Source: Mobula hypostoma (lineage: Eukaryota). From it: 64,000 nucleotides of DNA. A program made the translations under genes and the position numbers. Positions within the stretch are counted from its first letter, which is position 1. Every line of letters begins with the position of its first letter. The notes below the pieces were generated by a model, which was not told the origin of the DNA, did no database searches, and saw only the letters and a list, made by a program, of their open reading frames with translations. Shown here piece after piece: positions 1,462 through 53,758 of the stretch. The stretch is from positions 119,910,001 through 119,974,000 of the forward strand of contig NC_086097.1 in the NCBI RefSeq assembly GCF_963921235.1, given 5' to 3'.

Positions 1462-2367
1462 ATGCAGATTCAGATTCATTTATCACGTGTACATCAAAGC
1501 ATACAGAGAAATGTGTTACTTGCATTAACAATAAACACAACCTAAAGTTGTGCTGGGCATCCTGCAAGTGTCACCACATATTTCAGTGACTACCAAAGCA
1601 TAGTCACAGTGCTCAGCAGAACAACATAAGTATCAACAACAACAACAATGACAGAACACAACAAAACAAAACAACAACGGCAAAACAAGCCCCTCTCTTC
1701 CCCTCCACATGCCTCTCCACCCACATACCCCAACAGGCCTTCAACCTCCGGTGCCTGGCCCAGAATCGCAGACATGAAGCCTCCGACTTCCTTACATGCC
1801 AACCCAATGGCTTTAACAATTGAGTGTTGACATCTGGACTTGCCGACTTCATCCTTTGACGTTCAGTATTGACCCTAGGACTTGGCGATCAGATCAGAAC
1901 TCTGAACAGAAGGCCCCAAATTCCTGACTTGCATAGACCTCCAACCCCAGGACTTACCTATCTGAAGCCTGCTGTCTGCACAGACCTCCAATCCTTGTAC
2001 TCGCTAACCTGGGAGGGGTTGCTGACCGAGGGAAGGGGATCAGCAGCCCTCATGCACAGGGCCGTTAACCTCAGTCGCTGACTACAGGGATCGCTGGTCT
2101 TCGTTCTCAGTGCCTGCTATGCTGCCATCTTTCCATCGGTATGGCTGGCATTCAATCTTGGAGTACTCTGACCTGGACTCCAACCATCAGCTCTGTTCCC
2201 TGAATCTTCAATAATATCCCCAATCACTAATTCCCATTTATCTGTGTCCTTAATCCCAAACCTAACCCCTAACTCCCACACTGTCCCCAAAACCATCCCA
2301 ACAAACCTAAAATACAAGTAAATCTGGACCACACCCTTAACAGCCATCATTGCTCAATGCCATCTTG
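1462..2367 (-). mobile_element. Non-autonomous LINE-tailed element (Rex1-like tail)
   Basis: Tail 'attcagattcatttatcac' like the Rex1-type 3' ends here; minus-strand AAGATGGC motifs near 2125 and 2360; no coding homology seen. Confidence 0.4.
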
Positions 2368-2710
2368 ACGATCTTGACTTACTGTAGGATACAGTTGAAT
2401 TGATGGTATTGGCTTAAAGGTTTAAAACAATGAGAAGTGCAACTTTGCTTTCTGTTTAACCACTTCCCAGACATTTCCACATTTTTCTTCCACTTTACCT
2501 TTTGCTGCAAGTTATTTATGGGAGAGAAAGTGGGATTTATGGTCAACCACCATTCATATTAAATCATTGGTGCGGCATTTTAAAATCCGCTCTCATCTGG
2601 CTCTGTCGCAATGGATGGTGACAAATGCCTGCATTAATGCTCACAGTCACACACTTTGTAACGGGGATGCTGTATTGCTGCACCATGTAATGGTAATTTA
2701 TGTGTGTTTA

Positions 2711-3050
2711 TAAGACCATAAGACATAGGAACAGATTTCGACCATTCAGCCCATCGGGTCTGCTCCACTTTTCCACTATGGCTGATTTATTATCTCCCTC
2801 AACCCCATCTAAACTGATCCTGTATTGTACTGAGACAATACATCCTTTGCACTAAATCAGTTTCTTCTCAAGGCAGCTCCTTCCATTTATAAGACCATAG
2901 ACCTAAGACATAGGAGCAGAATCAGGCCATTTGGCCCTTCGAGTCTTTTCCGCCATTCCATTCTAGCTGATTTATTATTCCTCTGAACTTTACTATTCCT
3001 CCATTCTTCTGCCTTCTCCCCATGACCTTCGACACCCTGACTAATCTATC
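2711..3050 (-). mobile_element. Two CR1 3'-tail fragments (2711-2812, 2889-3050)
   Basis: 'taagaccataagacataggagcaga...ggccattcagccc' tail shared with the CR1 ends at 9066 and 35917. Confidence 0.7.
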
Positions 3051-3599
3051 AGGTTCAAGCCGAAGGTCAAGCTTAATGTCATTCAACCAAACACCCGTAC
3101 ACAGCTGAATGAAACATTCTTCCTCTCTGGAAAGTTTCAAAACGCAATACATTTAGTTGCACACAGCTCAGTTATGATCCAGCTCATACGGTCACAAAAT
3201 AATATAAGCACACATTCCTGAATGGCATGGCCTGAGGATTGACAAGTTGACATAAAGTTGAGCTGCATGTTTCTATAAGGTTGCGGAATGTTTCTGGCAC
3301 TATTGTAATAAACAAAACAGAAGTATAAATATGTAAAACAACAGCAATAAGAGGTGACAAGTGACCAGTGTAGGATGAGAGTGTATCAGTGAGTTGGGAG
3401 TTGAGGGTGGGTGGTTGGTCGTGCATTCACATAGGGTATACGTGTGTCCCAGGTGTCAGCAGGGCTCTTATGCTGAGGGGAAAGGGATTGTGGGAAGGGT
3501 GTAAGGGGTCTTTGACAATGCTGGAGGCCCTGTGTATGCAGCACTTTCGATAGATATCATGAATTCCGATGATGTATAAACATTCTGATGATGTATTAA

Positions 3600-4255
3600 G
3601 CGGGAGGAGAAGTCGGCGGCGTGATGCAGCTCGCAGTGGCCACTCCAGTGGTGATGTCTGTTATTTGTCAGGTTGGGTGCCGTGCACAATCCTGATTTGA
3701 TGGAGACGGATGTGAGAGCACGGAGGAACATCTGGTGAAACTTCGTTTGCTTCGCTCCTGCTGCTACTGTGTGGTCTAGAATCTCCGGAGGGGAAGGGCC
3801 CGAGTCCTTGGCTTTGCTTGTTGCTCGGCGGCCAGGGCGGGATCGAAGTGCTCGGCAGAGGATGGTGCTCGGAGAGGCTGCGTCGGAGGCTGAAGTTTTC
3901 GGACGGACTCAGAGTCCGCTGCTGTCGGGTGCTTCCAATGGTGCTGCATCAGCAAGTTGGCGGCGCTTGGAGGTTCATGGCAGGGAGAGTTTCTTCCTTC
4001 TGCCACCTGCATGAGATGATGAGTCTATCGGGACTTTGAGACTTTTTTTTACCTTGCCCATGGTCTGCTCTTTATCAAATTATGGTTTTGTTTTGCACTG
4101 TTGTAACCATATATTATAATTATGTGGTTTTGTCAGATTTAGCCTTGGTTTGTCCTGTATTTTTTTGTGATATCATTCTGGAGGAACGTTGTATCATTTT
4201 TAATGCATGCATTTCTAAATGACAATAAATGAGGACTGGGAGTCCTCATAATCTA
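3600..4255 (+). mobile_element. ~650-bp non-autonomous retroelement, copy 1
   Basis: Near-collinear with 10406-11057 and 46413-47076; 3' end AATAAA + TGAGGAC/GTCCTCA hairpin + ATCTAA. Confidence 0.85.
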
Positions 4256-4261
4256 AAAAAA

Positions 4262-4455
4262 ACTTTCACTTTAAATATACCTAATGACTTGACCTCCACA
4301 TCCATCTATGGCACAGATAGGCCACTCTCTTGTCAAGGAAGTTCCTCCTCATCTTTGTACTGAAAGGACATCTTGTTATTCTGATGATGTGCCCGCTAAT
4401 CTTACACTCGCTCACTACAAGAAATATCCTCTCAACATCCACTCTATCTAAGCCC
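4262..4455 (-). mobile_element. CR1 ORF2 C-terminal fragment
   Basis: Minus translation GLDRVDVERIF...MRRNF, typical of the CR1 ORF2 end. Confidence 0.75.
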
Positions 4456-5446
4456 TCACTGAGAAAGCCACTTCCATCACTGAGCACCTTCCAACACCGA
4501 GTCAGTTCCCTCCATTCACTGAGGTAGCCTCTCCCCACACTGAGATGGTTCCTTTCCTACACTCTGACAACTCCTTCCTACACTGAGGTGACTTCTTCTC
4601 TCCACTGTGATGGCCCTTCCCTACAATGAGATGGTCCTTTCCCACATGGGATGGTTCCTTCCCATACTGCAACAGTTCGGAAACAGAATCAGGTTTATAT
4701 CACTGCATGTGTCGTGAAATTTGTTAACTTAGCAGCAGTGGTACAATGTAATACATGATAATGTAAAAAGAAATAAAAATAAATAAGTAAATCAATTAAC
4801 AGTAACAATGAGAAGAGGGCATGTCCTGGGTGATGGGGGTCCTCAATGGTGGACACCACCTTTCTGAGACACCGCTTCTTGAAGATGTCTTGGATACTAC
4901 GGAGTCTAATACCTAAGATGGAGCTGACTAATTTTGCAAATTCCTGCAGCTTCTTTCGGTCCTGTGCAGTTATCCCCCCACTACTCCCACCTCCCAATAC
5001 CAGACGGTGATGCAGTCTGTCAGAATGCTCTCCATTGTACATCAATGAACCTTTTTGAGTATTTTAGGTGACAAACCAAATCTCTTCAAACTCCCAATGA
5101 AATATAACTGCTGTCTTGCCTTATCTATAGCTGCATTGTTATGTTGGGACCAGGTTAGATCCTCAGAGATCTTGACATCCAGGGACTTGAAGTTGCTCAC
5201 TGTCTCCACTTCTGATCCCTCTATGAGGATTGGTTCATGTTTACTTATCTTATCCTTCCTAAAGTCTACAATTAGCTCTTTTGTTTTTCTGATGTTGAGT
5301 GCAAGGTTGTTACTGTGACACCTCTCAATCAGCTAGCATATCTCGCTCCTGTACACCCTCTCCCACACTAAAACAGCCTCTTTCCACATTGAGATGGTTC
5401 CCTTTCACACTGAGACAGTTCCTACTCTAAATGAGACAGTTCCTTC
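4456..5446. repeat. Degenerate ~22-bp minisatellite (CACACTGAGATGGTTCCTTTCC-like), split by a LINE
   Basis: About ten units at 4456-4679 and four at 5356-5446. Confidence 0.75.
4685..5357 (-). mobile_element. Rex1/Babar-type LINE 3' fragment
   Basis: Minus translation IEDPHHPGHALFSLL; tail AAACCTGATTCTG. Confidence 0.8.
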
Positions 5447-5907
5447 CGAGTAACCGCGTAACCGCTACTTCAAACAAGGAATGCATGTTTATCTCAGAAG
5501 ATTAATACCCATTAAAAAAGTTGTTTTTGTATGACAAGAAATATAATATGGCATTGATACTTTCAGGAAATGGGCAAAGCCCTGGGTGAGCGAGTCTGCT
5601 GGGGAAGTTGGAGGCCTGTTGTCTGTGAGTCCAAGGAAGGGTAGAGGCCTGGAGGTGGCCTGTCGTACGGCTGGAGGACTGTGTGTATGAGTGAGTGGGT
5701 GGGTAGATGGGAGGGAAGAAAGGGGCTTGTTTAGTTACTGCTGTTCCGCTGAACATTGTGGAAAAAGTATGTTGGTGCTAGAATATATGGCGACACTTGG
5801 AGGCTGCTCCAAACACATTGTTATTTGGATTTATTATTTATTTATTTTGAGAAATAGCACAGTAACAGGTCTTTCCAGCTTAATAAACCTGTGCTTCCCA
5901 GTTACAC

Positions 5908-23195: not shown

Positions 23196-24994
23196 AGTTG
23201 CCGGAAAATAGTTGGAGGAAAAATGGGGAAACCTGATTCTGATTCTAATAACTCAACTTTAAAAGTGTAAATGTGATAAAAATTAATCAATCTAAAATTA
23301 ATTAATTTACACTGTTTTGAAACTTTTAAAACTTAAACAAAATGAGAACTAATATCATTACAAATCTAATAAAATAAAACATCCTCATTAGAAATATAGT
23401 ATTTCAGATTATATCCTAACAGTTCTTAAAATGCCAATTCAAAGTTCATAGTTGCCAATTTTTATTATGTGGGAGATCACATGCAGAGTTAAATATCCTT
23501 GCATAACTCAAATATAAAACAGGGCTACACAGGACCATTGTGGAATTCAGATCCTTGTTATTAATTCATATTCATATTCATTAGTTAATAATGCAAGGCA
23601 AGCAAAATGACAAGTACTGGGAGACAAAGAGTATATGATCTTGTAAAAAGACCTAGTCAATTAGAACATGTTGATATCTGTTCCTCAGACATTATGGGTT
23701 TCCTCTTTCTTCCTTTTGATGCAGAAGGAGGATATTCACAACATCAAAAAGGTTGAGAAGAAATCTGGCTGTAGTTTGGTTTGATCTGGCAAATGCGTAT
23801 GGTTCTGTTCCCCATGTCCTGACTGAGTTTGCGATGGAATTCCTATGGATTCCTGTTAAGGTGAGGAACTTTGTTATGCAGTACTACAATGGTTCCCGAT
23901 GAGGTTTTCCGCTCAGCAGTTTATAACTGGGTGGCAGAGCTTGGATGTTGGAATCCCAATGGGATGTGCAATTTCACCCATCCTTTTTGTGTTAGCCATG
24001 GAGGTCATTGTGACGGTTGCAGAATCAGTGGGACCAGGTGTCGCACTTGATGGCGGAGGGGAGTTACCACCAATAAGAGCGTTCATGGATGATCTTACCC
24101 TTTTGGGTCCCAGCACAGAGGCAGTGGAAAATGAATCTGGACTCAAGGAGCTAATGGATTGGAGAAGAATGAAGTTCAAGACCAGGAAGTCAAGGAGCCT
24201 TGTTCTTAGGAGAGGAAAGCTGGTTGACTTTCATTTCACCCTTTGTTGAGAGGAGATTCCATCCATTCAGGACCAACCAGTTAAGAGCCTCGGATGACGG
24301 TACACAGAGGAGCTGAGAGACACCAAGAGGGTTCAAGAGACAGGGGAACAGATCAGCAGAGGTCTGATGTCTGTTGACAAGTGTGGCTTGTCTGGCAAGT
24401 TGATGTTGTGGTGCTTGCAGTATGGACTGATGCCATGGATAGTGTGGCCACTAACTGTCTATGAAGTGGCAATGTCCCATGTTGAGGCAATGGAACAGAA
24501 GATCAACAAGTATGTGAAGAAGTGGCTTGGAGTACCGAGCAGCCTCACCAATGTTGCAATCCACAGTAGCCAGACGAAGCTTACCATCCCAGTGCAATCC
24601 CTTGTTGAAGAGGTCAAGGTAGCCAAGGTAGGATCATTCTTGATGCTTCGAGACTCAAAAGACCCTGTCATCAAGAACACCCAGCCAGATGTGAGATTAG
24701 GCAGTAAGTGGTCAATCCATGCAGCAGTTGATGAGGCAGAGTCTCATTGAAGCACAAGGAGACGGTTGGGGCTATCCTGCTAGGCTGCCAGGGACTTGGA
24801 TGGACAACCCACAGTGGTGGTCATCTTCTACAGGTAAGGAGCACTGTGAGCTTGTAACATAAGAAATACGAGAGGTAGAAGAGAAGAAGAGACCAGCTAA
24901 AACAGCTAAAACAGCTGGCCTGGCCAAACAAGGGGCTTGGACCTGGTGGGAAAGTGCTGAACAACGACATCTATCTTGGAATGATCTGTAGCAC

Positions 24995-25753
24995 ATGGAA
25001 TTGCTCCACATTTCTTTTTTATGCAGAGCAGCGTACGATCTGCTCCCAACACCTGCCAACCTCAGCACCTGGTATGAAGGTAAGACAGACAGGTGTGCTG
25101 CTTGTGGTGAGAAAGGAACACTTCAACATATTTCGAGTGCCTGCAGAGTCAATCTTTCCAGCAGCATGTACACTTGGAGACATAATAATGTTCTCAAAGT
25201 TGTAACAGAAGCGGTTGAGCAGAGAGTACTGCAGCACAACTTATCTCATGCCCCATGCTGCACAGAACGTCACATATCATTTGTGAAAGAAGGCTCCAAG
25301 TCGAGGGTGCACAGCACAGGCTCACGATCAAGCATACTTTCTTCAGCCAATGATTGGTGTGTCAAGGCCGACCTGGATAGGAAAGGCCGTTTCCCGGAGC
25401 AAATAGCTTTCACCACATTGCATCCAGATATAATCGTATGGTCTGGCACCAGTAGAGAAGTGGTTATTGGTGAACTCACAGTCACCTGGGAAGACAACAT
25501 CGATGAAGCCCATGAGCGCAAGTTAACCAAGTATGCAGAATTAAGATCAGAGTGCAGAGACAGAGGGTGGAAATTCTCATGCTATCCATTCGAAATAGGC
25601 TGCCGTGGGTTTATTGCGTTCACTCTCCAGAAGTGGCTGCGTGACCTTGGCTTCACTAGAAGAGAGATCAAGTCTACCAGCAGGGCTGTAGCTGAGGCAG
25701 CAGAGAAAGGATCAGCATGGGTGTGGACCAAGTATGTCCAGAGGGGCAGATAG
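24995..25753 (+). pseudogene. Zinc-knuckle and PD-(D/E)xK-type RLE domain of the Hero element
   Basis: Open 252-codon frame with CCHC, RHN, PD, E and K..KY motifs. Confidence 0.85.
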
Positions 25754-25875
25754 TCAAACAGTGTATACATATCTTTCAAACCCTTCAGTAGTTGCATAGA
25801 CACCTGAAGAGCAGACTATCTGTTGGATGGAAGTGACCAACAACTCTGATAGAGGCAGATGCCAAGTTTTTAAGC

Positions 25876-25994
25876 TCACCAGTGGGAGGTGGTGCTTTAG
25901 CACTGCTGGCCCACCACCTCGAGGGAGTCTTGATCATAAGCAGGCCGAAACTCCTGAAGACAGGTGGCAGATCAACTGATGATCCCACTGGTGA
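25876..25994 (+). ncRNA. Structured 3'-UTR RNA with hammerhead core motifs in permuted, pseudoknotted order (candidate ribozyme)
   Basis: Six complementary segment pairs plus GUC 25927-25929, GAAA 25947-25950 and CUGAUGA 25976-25982; activity untested. Confidence 0.55.
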
Positions 25995-28127
25995 TAGCAC
26001 AGGACAGTTAATATCTTAGTCCACGTGTATTTTTTAACTCAAGTATTTTTTTCTTAACTCTGGCATTCAGAACCATTCCAATAATCACATTTCTCCTTTT
26101 ATTTCCCTGTAATTTATTCCACAGACTCAATTCTTCAGCTATCTACCTACATTAGGGGAAAATATATTAACCAATTCACCTACGCACACTGTCCTGCAGC
26201 TGAGGAAAATATTGATCCCAGTACCTGGATTGAGAGGGAATAGGTCTAGCTTTCCAGATAAATAACTTAAAAATAAACTAAAACAAAGAAAATAATTAAT
26301 CAGAACATTAATGACAACTTCATCATCCATGTACAAGAAGAATAAAATAAGGGCTAAATCTCCCCTGAGCTTGCAAAATTCTTTAAAAGACTGAAAATTT
26401 TCCAAGGAGTTGGCCTTAACATATCTAAAGAAAATCTAATAGTATTTTTGAAAGGTAGTTGTTTTCTTGTTTGATTTAATTTGCTTCTGATTCGCATTCC
26501 TGTTCCAACATGTCGGTCCATGGCCTCCCCTCGTACTATCATTCACTACACGGGTCCAGTTGACATCAGTAGATCTAGCATTTCCAGACTCTCCTGGCTG
26601 TCAATACTACAAATTGCCTTTTAGAGTCTGGATGATCGACAAATTCATATTTCTGGTGGTGCAGAGCCCTAACAGCAACATCTAAAATATTCATTTCTTC
26701 CTTTGGACTTTGTCTTTCCATTCTTCCGCACTATTGAATAACAGTTTCAAGCTTATGCTGTAAATATGGGACAGTAACCCCTTTTCATTTGTCTCTTCTC
26801 TATTGCACCTATTCATAATCTATTCCTTAGTCCTCTCCTCCAAAGTTAAAAGCTCAAAGTAAGTTTATTATCAAGATATGTATACTATATACAACCTTGA
26901 GATTCATTTTTGTTGCAGGCACCCACAGGAAAATAAAACAAAAACTAATACACATCCAATATGCAAAAGAGGACAAATGGTGCAAAAATTTAAAAAAAAA
27001 CAAGTATAACTGAGAACATGAGCTGTGGAATTCCCGAAAGTGAGTCCACAGGCCGAGGAATCAGTTCAGCGCTGAGGTACGTGAAGCCATCCATGCTATT
27101 ACAGGAGACCGATGGTTATAGGGCAACAACTGTTCTTGAACTTGGTGGTTTGGGACTCAAGACTCCTGCACCTCCCGCCTGATGGTAGTGGTGAGAAGAG
27201 AGGGAGATGAGTTAAACAGGGGCAGGCGGGATGAGCTCTGGTGAGAGATTCTGAAATTCACAAACCTGTCAACCACATTCTGCCAGTGGGTACAGTGACC
27301 TGTCATTTTCTGCCCATCTAGTTTCTATAGGCTTTCTAGTCACTAATGTCTGTCTTGAAGTGAAAATCCCTGGCTAACTTCCCACTCTGCAGGAGCTGAA
27401 TTCTTTGCAATTCTTCTGTCACTATTAAGAGTTTCTCTTCACTATAACAAGACAGATGATGGGTGCTTTAACTTTATAGCTCTATTAAGATTATTGTTGT
27501 ACTTTCTACAGATACTATCTTTGCTTTTACCACTATTATAAATCACTTAACCAGTCCAAATCACTTTAAAACATTCACACTTAAAATCACTTTAACTATT
27601 ATCCGCTTCGTCTTAGATCTTCGTCTTAGCTGAATGTTACAGCATGGATCCATTCCTCAGATAGTTAGTCTAGCCAAACGTACTTCAAATTGACCTACTA
27701 TACTGACAACTCCTCTGACTGCAGTTCGGACTGCTGCTGTTGTTTTTTTTATCATTCCCTCTGTTCTTAATTCTCATTGTCCATTGCACCAAATGTGAAT
27801 TTGGCTATCTGATTGAACAGCCAGTCTTTGCTCACTTAATGGATTGTTAACAGGTTCACACCTACATCTTATAGCTTTTTTGTTATCTCGACACATAGGC
27901 CTCGGTTGTTGATTCATGTGGAAAATTGTGTGTTCTTTGGTAAAATCATAAAACTTCCATTTACAATGTCCTTCACACTGTAAAGTACTAAAGGAGGTGG
28001 GTATATTTATAGCACTCTAAAGATATTTGGGCAGGTATTTTAATAGAAAAATGTTAGTGGTATATGGCACAAATGTGGGTAACTGAGACTGCTGGACGTT
28101 AAAAAAAAGCTTAGCTTTACTGGTCAC

Positions 28128-35696: not shown

Positions 35697-38600
35697 TCAC
35701 ATGCAAAATGCTGGAGGAACTCAACAAGTCAGGCAGCATCTATGAAAATGAATAAACAGTTGAGGTTTCGGGCTGATACACTTCTTCAGGACTGAAAAGG
35801 GAGAGGGAAGGCACCAGAATAAAAAGGCAAGGAGAGAGGAAGGTGGATGGCTGGAAGGTGATAGGTGAAGCTAGGTAGATGGAAAAGGTCAAGGGTTGGA
35901 GAGGAAGGAATCTGAAAGACCATAAGATATAAGAGCAGAAGTAGGCCATTTAGCCCATTGAGACTGCTTTGCCATTCAATCCTGGGCTGATCCAATTCTT
36001 CCAGTTATCCCCATTCCCTTGCCTTCTCCCCATACCCTTTGATGCCTTGGCTAATCAAGAGCCTATCCATCTCTTCCTTAAATGCACCCAATGACTTGGG
36101 CTCCACAGCCGCTCGTGACAGCAAATTCCACAGTTTTACCACCCTCTGACTAAAATAATTTCTCCGCATTTCTGTTGTAAATGGGAGTCCTTCAATCGTG
36201 AAGTAGAGCCCTCTTGTCCTAGACTCCCCTACTATGGGAAATAACTTTGCCGTATCTAATCTGTTCAGGCCTTTAACATTCAGAATATTTCTATGATATC
36301 CCCCCTCATTCTCATGAACTCCAGGGAATACAACCCAAGATCTGCCAGACGTTCCTCATACGGTAACCCTCTCATTCCTGGAATCATTCCCGTGAACCTT
36401 CTCTGAACCCTCTCCAATGTCAGTATATCCTTTCTAAAATAAGGAGCCCAAAACTGCACACAATACTCTGTGTGGTCTCGTGAGTGCCTTATAGAGCCTC
36501 AACATCACATCCCTGCTCTTTTATTCTATTCTCTAGAAATGAATGCCAACATTGCATTCGCCTTCTTCACCATGGACTCAACCTGGAGGTTAACCTTTAG
36601 GGTATCCTGCACAAGGTCTCTCAAGTCCCCTTGCATCTCTGCATTTTGAATTCTCTCCCCATCTAAATAATAGTCCACCCATTTATTTCTTCCACCAAAG
36701 TGCATGACCATACATTTTCCGACATTGTATTTCATTTGCCACTTCTTTGCCCATTCCCCTAAACTATCTAGGTCTCTCTGCAGGTTCTCTGTTTCCTCCA
36801 CCTATCTTTGTTTCATCAGCAAATTTAGCCACAGATCCATTAATCCCATAATCCAAATCATTGACATACATCATAAAAAGCAGCTGTCCCAAAACCAACC
36901 ACTGTGGAAGTCCACTGGTAACTGACAGCCAGTCAGAGTAGGATCCTTTTATTCCCACATTCTGTTTTCTGCCGATCAATCAATGCTCCACCCATGCTAG
37001 TAATTCCCCTGTAATTCCATGGGCTGTTATCTTGCTAAGCAGCCTCATGTGCGGCACCTTGTCAAAGGCCTTCTGAAAATCCAAGAACACCACATCTACG
37101 ACATCTCCTTTGTCTACGCTGCTTGTAATTTCCTCAAAAAATTGCAGTAGGTTAGTCAGGCAGGATTTTCCTTTCAGGAAACCATGCTGGCTTTGGCCTA
37201 TATTGTCATGTGCCTCCAAGTATTCTGTAATCTCATCCCTAACAATCGATTCCAACAACTTCCCAACCATTGATGTCAGGCTAACAGGTCTATAGTTTCC
37301 TTTCTGCTTCCTCCCACACTTCTTAAATAGCGGAGTAACATTTGCAATTTTCCAGTCATCCAATACAATGCCAGAATCTAGCGATTCCTGAAAGATCATT
37401 GTTAATGCTCTCCCAAGGGTACATTCCATCAGGTCCAGGAGATTTATCCACCATCAGACTATTAAGCTTCCTGAACACCTTCTCAGTCATGATTTTCACT
37501 TCACAAACTTCACTTCCTTGACGCTCTTGAATGTCCAATATACTGCAGATATCTTCCACTATGAAGACTGATGCAAAATATGCATTCAGGTCCTCTGCCA
37601 TCTCTGTGTCTCTCATTACAGTATCTCCAGCATCATTTTCTATTGGTCCTATATCTACCCTCAACTCTCTTTTACCCTTTCTATACTTTAAAAAGCTTTT
37701 AATATCTTCTTTGATATTAGTCACCAGCTTTCTTTCATAATTAATCGTTTCCTTCCTAATGACCTTCTTAGTTGCCTTCTGCAAGTTTCTAAAAGCTTCC
37801 CTATCCTCTCTATTCCCACTAACTTTTGCTTCCTTGTATGCCCTCTCTTTTGCTTTTACCTTGTCTCTGACTTCACTTGTCAGCCACGTTAGTGTCCTTC
37901 TTCCATTCAAAACATTATTCTTATTTGGAATATATCTGTCTTGCACCTCCCTCATTTTTCACAGAAACTCCAGCCATTCCTGCTTTGCTATCCTTCCTGC
38001 TAGTGTCCCTTTCCAGTCAACCTTGGATGGTTCCCCTCTCATACCATCGTAATTTCCTTTATTCCACTGAAATACCAACACATTGGAATTTAGTTTCTCC
38101 TTCTCAAAATTCAAAGTGAACTCAATCATATTGTGATCACTGTTCCTTAAGGGTTCCTTAATCTTAAACTCTCTTATCACCTCCGGATCATTGCACAATA
38201 CCCAATCCAGCACAGCCAATCCCCTAGTGGGCTCAACAACAAGCTGTTTTGAAAAGCCATCCCTTAGACATTCTCTCTCTTGAGGTCCAGTACTGGCCTG
38301 GTTTTCCCAATCCACTTTCATGTTAAAGTTCCCAATGATTATCATGACATTGCCCTTCTGACATGCCTTTTCTATCTTCTGCTGTAGTTTGTAATCCACA
38401 TCCCGGCTGCTGTTTGGAGGCCTGAATACAACTGCCATTAGGGTCCTTTTACCCTTACCATTTCTTGACTCAACCAATAGAGACTCTATACCTTCCGATC
38501 CTATGTCATCCCTTGCTAATGATTTATTATTGTTTCTTATATACAAGAGATGAGAGTGGATCATTGAAGAAAGGGAAAGAGGGGAGTGTTAGGCAGGTGA

Positions 38601-50115: not shown

Positions 50116-52163
50116 TTAGCGGAAGTTAGAGTCAATGTTCATGCCATCAGGTTGGAGGCTACCCAGACGGAATATAAGGTGTTGTTCCTCCAACCTGAGT
50201 GTGGCTTCATCTTTACAGTAGAGGAGGCCGTGGATAGACATGTCTGAATGGGAATGGGATGTGGAATTAAAATGTGTGGCCACTGGGAGATCCTGCTTTT
50301 TCTGGCGGACAGAGCATAGGTGTTCAGCAAAATGGTCTCCCAGTCTGCATCGGGTCTTGCCAATATATAGAAGGCCACATCGGGAGCACCGGACGTAGTA
50401 TATCACCCCAGCCCACTCACAGGTGAAGTGTTGCCTCACCTGGAAGGACTGTCTGAGGCCCTGAATGGTGGTAAGGGAGGAAGTGTAAGGGCATGTGTAG
50501 CACTGGTTCCGCTTACAAGGATAAGTGCCTGGAGAGAGATCAGTGGGGAGGGATGGGGAGGACAAATGGACAAGGGAGTCACGTAGGGAACGATCCCTAC
50601 GGAAAGTGGGGGAGGAGGGAAAGATGTGCTTAGTGGTGGGATCCTGTTGGAGGTGGCGGAAGTTACGGAGAATAATATGTTGGACTTGGAGGCTGGTGGG
50701 GAGGTAAGTGAGGACCAGGGGAACCCTATTCCTAGTGGGGTGGCGGGAGGATGGAGTGAGAGCAGATGTGCATGAAATGGGGGAGATGCATTTGAGAGCA
50801 GAGTTGATGGTGGAGGAAGGGAAGCCCCTTTCTTTAAAAAATGGAGGACATCTCCCTCGTCCTGGAATGAAAAGCCTCATCCTGAGAACAGATGCGGCGG
50901 AGACGGAGGAATTGCGAGAAGGGGATGACATTTTTGCAAGAGACAGGGTGAGAAGAGGAATAGTCCAGATAGCTGTGAGAGTCAGTAGGCTTATAGTAGA
51001 CATCAGTGGATAAGCTGTCTCTAGAGATAGAGACAGAAAGATCTAGAAAGGGGAGGGAGGTGTCGGAAATGGACCAGGTAAACTTGAGGGCAGGGTGAAA
51101 GCTGGAGGCAAAGTTAATAAAGTCAACGAGCTCAGCACGCGTGCAGGAAGCAGCGCCAATGCAGTCGTCGATGTAGCGAAGGAAAAGTGGGGGACAGATA
51201 CCAGAATAGGTTCGGAACATAGATTGTTCCACAAAGCCAACAAAAAGGCAGGCATAGCTAGGACCCATACGGGTGCCCATAGCTACACCTTTAGCTTGGA
51301 GGAAGTGGGAGGAGCAAAAGGAGAAATTATTAAGAGTAAGGACTAATTCCGCTAGACGGAGCAGAGTGGTGGTAGAGGGGAACTGATTAGATCTGGAATC
51401 CAAAAAGAAGCGGAGAGCTTTGAGACCTTCCTGATGGGGGTTGGAAGTGTGTAGGGACTGGACATCCATGGTGAAAATAAAGCGGTGGGGGCCAGGGAAC
51501 TTAAAATCATCGAAAAGTTTAAGAGCGTGAGAAGTGTTACGAACATAGGTAGGAAGGGATAGAACAAGAGGGGATAAAACCATGTCGAGGTATGCAGGAA
51601 CGAGTTCGGTGGGGCAGGAGCAAGCTGAGACAATAGGTCTGCCAGGACATGCAAGTTTGTGGATCTTGGGTAGGAGGTAGAAACGGGAAGTTCGAGGTGT
51701 GGGAACTATAAGGTTGGTAGCAGTGGATGGGAGATCCCCTGAGCGGATAAAGTCGGTGATGGTGTGGGAGACAGTGGCCTGGTGCTCCTTAGTGGGGTCA
51801 CGATCGAGGGGTAAATAAGTGGAGGTATCCGCGAGTTGTCGCTGTGCCTCGGCAAGGTAGAGGTCAGTACACCAGAATACAACGTCACCCCCCTTATCGG
51901 CGGGTTTAATAGTAAGGTTAGGATTAGTGCGGTGGGTGTGGAGAGCAGAGCGTTCGGAAGGAGTGAGGTTGGAATGGGGACAAGGTGCGGTAAAGTCGAG
52001 ACGGTTGATGTCCCGTCGGCAGTTAGCAATAAAGAAAATCCAGAGCAGGCAGAAGACCAGAGCGGGGTGTCCATGAAGAAGAGGAGGGTTGAAGACAGGA
52101 GAAGGGGTCATCGGTGGGGGTGGAAGATTCCTTGCCGAAGAAGTAGGCTCGGAGACGGAGACG
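50116..52163 (-). pseudogene. PLE RT + GIY-YIG endonuclease, left arm (5'-truncated, frameshifted)
   Basis: KPADKG, FTMDVQSL, GVAMGTRMGPSYA, RYIDD; VIY...LYIGKT, GMN. Confidence 0.95.
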
Positions 52164-53758
52164 CACTTCCCGTTTCTACCTCCTACCCAAGATCCGCAAA
52201 ACTGCCTGTCCTGGCAGACCTATTGTCTCAGCTTGCTCCTGCCCCACTGAACTCATTTCTGCATAACTCGACATGGTTTTATCCCCCTTTGTTCTATCCC
52301 TTCCTACCTCTGTTCGTGAGACTTCTCACGCTCTTAAACTGTTCGATGATTTTAAGTTCCCTGGCCCCCACCGCTTTATTTTCACCATGGATGTCCAGTC
52401 CCTATATACTTCCATCCCCCATCAGAAAGGTCTCAAAGCTCTCTGCTTCTTTTTGGATTCCAGACCTAATCAGTTCCCCTCTACAACCACTCTGCTCCGT
52501 CTTGCGGAATTAGTCCTTACTCTTAATAATTTCTCCTTTGGCTCCTCCCACTTCTTCCAAGCTAAAGGTGTAGCTATGGGCACCCGTATGGGTCCTAGCT
52601 ATGCCTGCCTTTTTGTTGGCTTTGTGGAACAATCTATGTTCCGAACCTATTCTGGTATCTGTCCCCCACTTTTCCTTCGTTACATCAACGACTGCATTGG
52701 CGCTGCTTCCTGCATGCATGCTGAGCTCGTTGACTTTATTAACTTTCCCTCCAACTTTCACCTGGCCCTCAAGTTTACCTGGTCCATTTCCGACACCTCC
52801 CTCCCCTTTCTAGATCTTTCTGTCTCTATTTCTGGAGACAGCTTATCCACTGATGTCTACTATAAGCCTACTGACTCTCACAGCTATCTGGACTATTTCT
52901 CTTCGCACCCTGTCTCTTGCAAAAATACCATCCCCGTCTCGCAATTCCTCCGTCTCCGCCACATCTGTTCTCAGGATGAGGCTTTTCATCCCAGAACGAG
53001 GGAGATGTCCTCCTTTTTTTAAAGAAAGGGGCTTCCCTTCCTCCACCATCAACTCTGCTCTCAAACGCATCTCCCCCATTTCATGCACATCCGCTCTCAC
53101 TCCATCCTCCCGCCACCCCACTAGGAATAGGGTTCTCCTGGTCCTCACCGACCACCCCACCAGCCTCCGGGTCCAACATATTATTCTCCGTAACTTCTGC
53201 CACCTCCAACGGGATCCCACCACTAAGCACATCTTTCCCTCCCCGCCCCCTCCCCCCCCCCCGGCTCTCCGCAGGGATCGTTCCCTACGCGACTCCCTTG
53301 TCCATTCATCCCCCCCATCCCTCCCCACTGATCTCCCTCCTGGCAGTTATCCTTGTAAGCGGAACAAGTGTTACACATGCCCTTACACTTCCTCCCTTAC
53401 CACCATTCAGGGCTCCAGACAGTCCTTCCAGGTGAGGCAACACTTCACCTGTGAGTCGGCTGGTGTGATATACTGCGTCCGGTGCTCCCGATGTGGCCTT
53501 CTATATATTGGCGAGACCCGACGCAGACTGGGAGACCGCTTTGCTGAACATCTACGCTCTGTCCGCCAGAGAAAGCAGGATCTCCCAGTGGCCACACATT
53601 TTAATTCCACATCCCATTCCCATTCTGACATATCTATCCACGACCTCCTCTACTGTAAAGATGAAGTCACACTCAGGTTGGAAGTACAACACCTTATATT
53701 CCGTCTGGGTAGCCTCCAACCGGATGGCATGAACATTGGCTTCTCTAACTTCCGCTAA
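52162..53758 (+). pseudogene. PLE RT + GIY-YIG endonuclease, right arm (5'-truncated, frameshifted, YIND)
   Basis: Same motifs; VIYCVRCSRCGLLYIGETRR. Confidence 0.95.

Follow-up and report, generated by a model that had tools for sequence, protein, structure and literature searches.

Hammerhead ribozymes, their S-G-C block order and retroelements linked to ribozymes are already known. The closest described fold is type SGC, comprising the HRIMA-1 motif and its variants (Eckert 2023), which were shown to cleave, slowly, at 0.007-0.19 per minute (Table 1 of PMC10085705). In the accessible text of that paper, six permutations of the hammerhead blocks are considered, the blocks are assumed to be uninterruptible, the search patterns require CUGAnGA and the stem II strand together, and the link of stem III to the helix joining stems I and II is described as difficult to bring into line with the crystal structure. 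Among retroelements, Penelope-like elements carry hammerheads of type I (often minimal and acting as dimers) or type III, in GIY-YIG elements or in non-coding units, and a model with circular RNA was proposed for them (PMC4209133). The HDV-like ribozymes of R2 and other LINEs and the twister variants of RTE elements represent other ribozyme classes and are situated at the 5' end, where the RNA frees the element from the host transcript (accessible parts of PMC7761336 and PMC13580325).

The window analysed here, a stretch of 64,000 nucleotides from the genome of Mobula hypostoma, contains a putative hammerhead of related but distinct layout in the tail of a retrotransposon (Table 1). The retrotransposon copy is 5'-truncated and mutated, with broken reading frames; the full unit, as measured on locus L033, is ~3858 nt long. 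The C-terminal frame of the window copy carries a CCHC zinc knuckle and conserved PD/E/K-Y residues, which we take to mark a restriction-like endonuclease (RLE), while its zf-RVT match scores below the cut-off. Less truncated genomic copies encode the reverse transcriptase (RT) too, and the element has the composition of an RLE non-LTR retrotransposon, namely a single ORF that encodes RT, a CCHC knuckle and, at its C terminus, a restriction-like endonuclease, but no APE. The best solved relatives of P0008, a 66%-identical protein, are R2 proteins; among named proteins, those of lancelets, echinoderms and percid fish are the closest, and the suffixes of the reference names in PMC7650587 presumably stand for lancelet, sea urchin and pufferfish. 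Some protein relatives (P0022, P0024, P0027 and P0029) bear an N-terminal Ulp1-type protease domain. The window element probably belongs to the Hero clade, in which insertion is mostly non-specific according to the accessible part of PMC4640811. The insertion pattern observed here is of the same kind: ~1000 pattern matches are dispersed with unrelated flanks, and the only preference at the first flank base is for T (35/48). Target-site duplications of at least 7 nt were found in 5 of 40 cases vs 24 of 777 controls, two of them being clear, and are not a regular feature of the element. Elsewhere in the window, frames with weak GIY-YIG matches lie in opposite orientation at 50116-51042 (-) and 52814-53758 (+) and probably belong to Penelope-like elements, and a frame at 37959-38588 (-) matching an APE-type endonuclease-reverse transcriptase probably represents another LINE.

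Table 1 Coordinates of the retrotransposon copy and the predicted ribozyme domain in the window, and of conserved unit elements in other loci (window positions unless a locus is named)
Feature	Position	Strand	Basis
RLE non-LTR retrotransposon copy, 5'-truncated, mutated	23744..26040	+	BLAST against further copies in the genome
C-terminal open frame, CCHC zinc knuckle and restriction-like endonuclease region	24992..25753	+	
P1 5' strand, partner of 25983-94, closing the domain	25876..25887	+	
P2 hairpin, directly 3' of P1; length varies among families	25888..25907	+	
P3 5' strand, predicted hammerhead stem II strand; G25908 is G10.1	25908..25912	+	
P4 5' strand; P4 links the far ends of stems II and I	25914..25919	+	
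Predicted kink-turn, non-bulged strand (N-G-A)	25920..25922	+	signature in 23/24 aligned copies
Block S: stem III strand, U16.1 (25928), C17 (25929, predicted cut after it), stem I strand	25923..25935	+	
Block G: stem II 3' strand, GAAA (25947-50), stem III 3' strand	25942..25955	+	
Predicted kink-turn, bulged strand (3-nt bulge, then G-A-N)	25956..25961	+	
P4 3' strand	25962..25967	+	
Stem I 3' strand and CUGAUGA (C3-A9); P1, not stem II, comes after A9	25970..25982	+	
P1 3' strand	25983..25994	+	
Rest of tail up to the fixed 3' end, without poly(A)	25995..26040	+	
Unit-start motif, ~80 nt	L033 4608-4700; L191 2637; L192 2652; L199 276; L218 1855; L232 2934; L264 1780		
G-rich paired element	L033 4795-4850; L232 about 3070-3125; L264 about 1930-1975		

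The earlier note had placed six helices and three core motifs ~120 nt past the end of the ORF. All of them lie exactly where it put them, no base is shared between two helices, and the measured distance from the stop codon (25751-53) to the fold is 123 nt. In the window copy, P1 consists of 12/12 Watson-Crick pairs and P2 of 8 bp including 3 G-U, P3 has 4 bp, P4 and stem I have 6 bp each, and stem III has 5 bp, or 6 with G25923-U25955 added; the core letters are GUC (25927-29), GAAA (25947-50) and CUGAUGA (25976-82). P3 reaches 5 bp in most copies, with G at 25942 in 26 of 30, where the window copy has A. The folding stability of the region is above chance (z -3.4; 0/200 shuffles equally stable). 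A nested-only folding program, which cannot model pseudoknots, misses P3 and stem I (pair probability 0.0 and 0.02), and it assigns the hairpin 25886-94/25912-20 a pair probability of 0.48 vs 0.46 for P2. This hairpin, which the earlier note had named as the competitor of the fold, is not conserved: it attains at least 8 bp in 3 of 24 families, with a mean of 5.4 vs 5.1 across families.

These data raise the question of how far the fold extends among related elements. In the same genome, the core pattern gave 1043 matches vs 12 for the reversed control, and a second family type with different stems gave 160 vs 0; further families in this genome were sought by sequence patterns only. Outside it, 79 metagenome loci were chosen by protein similarity alone, the best 80 of 258 confirmed stretches being kept. 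With a six-helix descriptor and a score threshold of 70, the fold was found in 35 of the 62 loci (from these best 80 of 258) having at least 200 nt after the protein match, compared with 0/62 reverse complements, 0/1240 shuffles and 11/650 cross-family chimeras. The descriptor imposes the letters CUGAnGA and GAA; therefore, their invariance is not independent evidence. A covariance model built from 24 copies matched the fold in 60 of the 79 metagenome relatives (again from the best 80 of 258), where 22 of the matched loci had been part of its training set, and all 62 model matches in the relatives were on the same strand as the ORF. Among the 19 loci without a model match, three parse by the descriptor (L189, L198 and L222), nine end at most 150 nt past the protein match, and seven (L232, L233, L235, L237, L238, L243 and L262) have room to spare and gave neither a model match nor a descriptor parse. 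The fold is located ~0.56 and 1.6 kb past the ORF in L193 and L245, respectively, with the same core, and likewise further from the ORF in L246. In a tree of 75 endonuclease regions, it is present on both sides of the midpoint root. The similar motif that the earlier note mentioned for other families is indeed carried by the second family type and by metagenome relatives. The sister lineages of L232 (2845-2890) and L193 (1720-1845) have another paired element in common after the ORF; among them, L232/L233 are without the hammerhead fold, and in L193 the fold lies further downstream.

Covariation was analysed in A4, a sequence-only, structure-blind alignment of 24 copies, from which the divergent copies L187, L190, L197, L198, L204 and L222 were left out. 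The top 11 pairs by mutual information all fall within stems I and III, P3 and P4, 88% of the cells pair vs 35-43% in slid structures, and compensatory change on both sides was observed in 30 of 32 pairs, so that the covariation of the helices across families, on which the earlier note had made its case depend, is confirmed. P3, stem III and stem I, corresponding to the three stems of a hammerhead, are paired in 97-98% each. P4 is paired in 92%, all 4/4 of its pairs vary on both sides, and in three dimensions it would act as the far contact between stems I and II. P1 and P2 are paired in 74-78%, length variation blurring the alignment there. The final base of P2 (A4 column 48, window 25907) is a pyrimidine in almost every row and might instead pair with G12 (column 89, window 25947); this pairing would extend stem II into the core and may represent an off state.

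Chance pairing in a GC-rich UTR, to which the two helices missed by the nested-only program might seem to point, is refuted by the mutual information in A4, the covariation and the descriptor controls, and we consider it exceedingly improbable. Moreover, among viral loci with the same core letters (80 of 120 tested), there was no model match better than E 0.056, and no protein relative of the element was found in viral contigs. The core-pattern match at L056 was set aside as fortuitous, the covariance model giving no match there. Rfam gave no ribozyme family match in the window region or in 13 related loci.

Core statistics were obtained from 26 non-redundant copies, whose core reads C3 U4 G5 A6 N7 G8 A9, G12 A13 A14 A15.1 and U16.1 H17, as in hammerheads. 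Position 17 is C in 7 copies, A in 8 and U in 11, and never G, though the descriptor permitted G; likewise, 15.1-16.1 is A-U in 26/26, though any pair was permitted. All four bases occur at position 7, whereas 10.1 is G in 22/26 and 11.1 is C in 23/26. The C3-G8 pair is replaced by U3-A8 in L264 and the worn copy L238 and by U3-G8 in L191/L192, all in one clade; U3-A8 is a known compensated and active core variant (accessible part of PMC3088659). Judged from the aligned copies, this pattern of variation is that expected of hammerhead chemistry and not of a generic protein-binding stem. We conclude that the fold is very probably a self-cleaving hammerhead ribozyme, with predicted cleavage after C25929.

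A different use of the same structure would be a non-cutting 3' UTR dock for the reverse transcriptase or for a kink-turn protein, with hammerhead-like letters kept for folding. LINE recognition structures lie just before the priming site, and the fold is found 46-165 nt before it; the inserted copies, moreover, retain an intact site. However, the absence of G at position 17 and the exchange of C3-G8 for U3-A8 fit hammerhead chemistry, the core is unchanged in L193 and L245 despite the distance of the fold from the ORF, and the six helices covary jointly without using any base twice, so that there is no conflict among them. We regard a dock without cleavage as quite unlikely and the ribozyme as the preferred reading.

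The arrangement of the core can be compared with the described types. Its block order is S-G-C, and not the CGS, GSC or SCG, without core pseudoknots, of types I, II and III. The earlier note had called the order UH, GAAA, CUGAUGA a non-circular one, which is correct, and knew of no published description; the order by itself is not new, having been published as type SGC (accessible part of PMC10085705). The likeness to type SGC, as far as the accessible text of that paper describes it, includes the same core letters and the same four core helices, a short linker between stems I and II, and an extra helix (here P4) that links stems I and II at their far ends and is reached from stem III via a short linker. 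In type SGC, however, the stem II strand comes directly after CUGAnGA or after one U, whereas here it is located 5' of block S; A9 runs into P1, the P2 hairpin lies between P1 and stem II, and a predicted kink-turn joins stem III and P4. The SGC examples of Eckert et al. come from metatranscriptomes, while the copies studied here are animal retrotransposons with predicted cleavage.

The P1/P2/P3 junction that the earlier note saw in place of stem II is supported: it splits stem II in a conserved, covarying fold of the RLE retrotransposon tail. A direct 4-bp stem II, as an intact block C would have it, is possible in 3 of 26 copies (L231, L204 and L198), and such an SGC-style stem was rejected as not conserved; the upstream P3 strand forms stem II. 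From the sequence comparison, the chain appears opened between A9 and G10.1 and closed by the P1/P2 junction, which places it outside the six permutations of Eckert et al.; we infer that the fold corresponds to the SGC fold re-opened at A9-G10.1, where core, P1, P2 and stem II meet in a four-way junction. Natural hammerheads can accommodate a single additional base between A9 and G10.1 (accessible part of PMC3705267; PMC4209133), among them that of CChMVd, whose interruption is likewise at A9-G10.1 and consists of one bulged base, whereas here a two-helix junction would hold both chain ends. A backbone exit at A9, for which no precedent was found in the literature searched, could impair the core.

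Between stem III and P4, the standard kink-turn sequence signature is present in 23 of the 24 A4 rows, with U as the third bulge base in 17. The kink-turn consensus consists of a canonical helix, a 3-nt bulge and tandem G-A / A-G pairs. The six divergent copies outside A4 have other junctions instead. This predicted kink-turn sits exactly where Eckert et al. left open how stem III connects closely to the stem I-II helix.

A further question concerns the role of such a ribozyme in the life cycle of the element, on which the ends of the copies bear. The 3' end of the copies is fixed at 26040, lacks poly(A) and lies 110 nt past the predicted cut. Of 70 loci holding the unit's start, 67 run on seamlessly, by 8-1689 nt, into the unit's own 3' end, and this head-to-tail junction is near-invariant and without added bases. 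Three of the 70 stop at most 3 nt from the start, 37 extend 8-96 nt and 30 extend 161-1689 nt, with no end at 97-160 nt past the junction (this count leaves out L104, which gave no anchored alignment, L083, which represents the L153 locus again, and a second match in L135; L069 and L071, which share a boundary, are both included). The predicted cut site is passed by 30 of the 70 copies; none ends at it (0/70), and 0 copies start there with four mismatched bases before it. Stops 40-96 nt past the junction were recorded in 22/52 second-pass vs 3/70 first-pass cases over the same sequence (Fisher p 3e-7), and thus sequence alone is not the cause of the stops. Head-to-tail junctions were also found in the second family of the same genome (L160 and L177), the metagenome relatives L195, L199, L211, L218 and L264 assemble as closed loops, and in L206 ribozymes flank the ORF on both sides. 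In L135, the junction is passed twice, with an internally deleted unit between. A jump in RNA depth just after the cut site, seen in 3 of 4 runs presumed to be RNA, was set aside, since contigs cannot show ends and the shared loose ends at positions 1410 and 1447 of L074 indicate a single short insertion within a host transcript that is being expressed.

The end of the element 110 nt past the cut, together with the head-to-tail copies, shifts the likely job of the ribozyme from plain 3' processing to the supply of unit-length or circular templates. We lean towards self-cleavage into unit RNAs, their re-ligation to circles and more-than-unit reverse transcription. The wider proposition seems to us evenly balanced: that the hammerhead opened at A9-G10.1, with its kink-turn, is the standard ribozyme of most of a clade of R2-related animal retrotransposons and a reversible nick-and-seal switch making ~3.7-6 kb protein-coding circles out of read-through transcripts, copied by internal priming and rolling-circle reverse transcription. 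In the proposed mechanism, P1 and P2 would meet stem II and the core in the four-way junction, and the kink-turn would let stem III fold back onto P4, tying stems I and II. Copies whose upstream repeat exceeds ~165 nt would hold two complete ribozymes, which would cut a host read-through transcript into unit-length RNA. Because the cut lies mid-domain and P1, P3, P4 and stem III bridge both sides of it, the ends of the monomer could rebuild one ribozyme and be ligated, the circle being sealed either by a host ligase or through self-ligation of the ribozyme. The enzyme of the element would prime at the fixed internal site 26040, copy the circle across the sealed cut and often pass the priming point, which would yield head-to-tail copies with two ribozymes regenerated; it would stop more often after meeting its own cDNA. 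Templates may also include linear RNAs in which only the upstream ribozyme has cut. The circle route would explain the intact cut site, present in nearly all sampled copies long enough (67/70), as well as the variable terminal repeats and their renewal. Uncut linear templates explain intact cut sites equally well, and the seven relatives without the fold count against the circle reading.

An active ribozyme might instead make the 5' end only, the upstream copy freeing the RNA while the downstream one is slow or inactive, so that templates would be linear, sometimes uncut, and no circle would form. Second-pass ends fall inside the 110-nt cut product in 40 of 70 copies, the longest being 14 nt short of the cut; this ceiling at 96 nt, followed by the empty interval of 97-160 nt, fits linear RNA with a cut-site 5' end at least as well as circles. 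The competing hairpin in the window family is in line with a slow or inactive copy, as are the low rates of type-SGC ribozymes (accessible part of PMC10085705), and 5' processing is the described role of R2 and other LINE ribozymes (accessible part of PMC7761336). In addition, L069/L033 and L071/L335/L338 have ~9 kb of upstream flank in common at 93-96% identity, parting exactly at the 3' end of the element, which may reflect ectopic recombination or else the long 5' transduction of flanking sequence by a linear read-through RNA. Nevertheless, processing confined to the 5' end is unlikely in our view: no pile-up is observed at the cut site, long second-pass copies stop sooner than first-pass ones (17/30 vs 21/62 at 161-560 nt, p 0.045), and repeats reach 1689 nt although, in the absence of circles, an upstream repeat could become shorter but never longer from one generation to the next.

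Template jumping is known for R2 enzymes, and head-to-tail copies could also arise by such jumping, or by insertion beside an existing copy, in which case they would be uninformative on the job of the ribozyme. L206, where two ~70%-identical families are joined head-to-tail, speaks for this origin. A jump from a real RNA end should, however, leave many copies stopping there, whereas 3 of 70 stop at the junction, and the junction is near-invariant with no added bases; we consider this origin very unlikely and retain the circle route. As for L206 itself, a partial copy of one family (3-2147) is joined to a full unit (2200-5870), each with a ribozyme, and the 3' part of the full unit is only ~70% identical to the partial copy; the join may be a template switch, a recombination or an assembly chimera.

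Among the retroelement ribozymes mentioned at the outset, the Penelope-like case is similar in the position of the hammerhead near the 3' end, the head-to-tail copies of more than unit length and the proposed route of cutting, ligation and circle formation. It differs from the present case, in which a pseudoknotted, self-contained fold resides in an autonomous RLE element with R2 proteins as its closest solved relatives. As with the HDV-like and twister ribozymes, the RNA is predicted to free the element from the host transcript; unlike these, as the accessible parts of PMC7761336 and PMC13580325 describe them, it lies 110 nt ahead of the 3' end in the element and comes to stand on the 5' side solely through tandem repetition.

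We found no report of the split block C, the kink-turn, the animal RLE context or the head-to-tail architecture in Rfam or in the literature searched, which covered part of the Eckert supplement but neither Repbase Reports, bioRxiv supplements nor most subscription journals. The searches returned no papers that link Hero to hammerheads, that treat RLE elements together with hammerheads, circles and tandem copies, or that connect a kink-turn to a permuted hammerhead and a retrotransposon, and the accessible part of Forgia 2023 (PMC10162972) contains no such variant. If the proposed reading is true, the CUGAnGA block is separable from stem II; published search patterns exclude this arrangement, and a large set of genomic ribozymes would thus be invisible to them. 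Non-circularly permuted ribozymes would move from metatranscriptome contigs to animal genomes, with many covarying examples. It would also suggest a Hero-type life cycle without a promoter of its own, based on unit release, a circular or more-than-unit template and internal priming, in parallel with the Penelope proposal. An RNA that holds itself together while being cut and ligated, combined with an internally priming enzyme, would be useful for RNA circularisation and gene insertion.

The start of the unit, just past the junction, is marked by a conserved ~80-nt motif present in both families of the genome and in several relatives (Table 1); no Rfam match was obtained for it. In several relatives the ribozyme is succeeded by this motif, and in L232/L233, which are without the fold, it lies ~160 nt downstream of the ORF. 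The motif may serve to position priming or to start translation; past it in L033, the frame stays open for ~200 codons before the first Met. A second conserved element, G-rich and probably paired, is located ~200 nt into the unit, inside the open frame.
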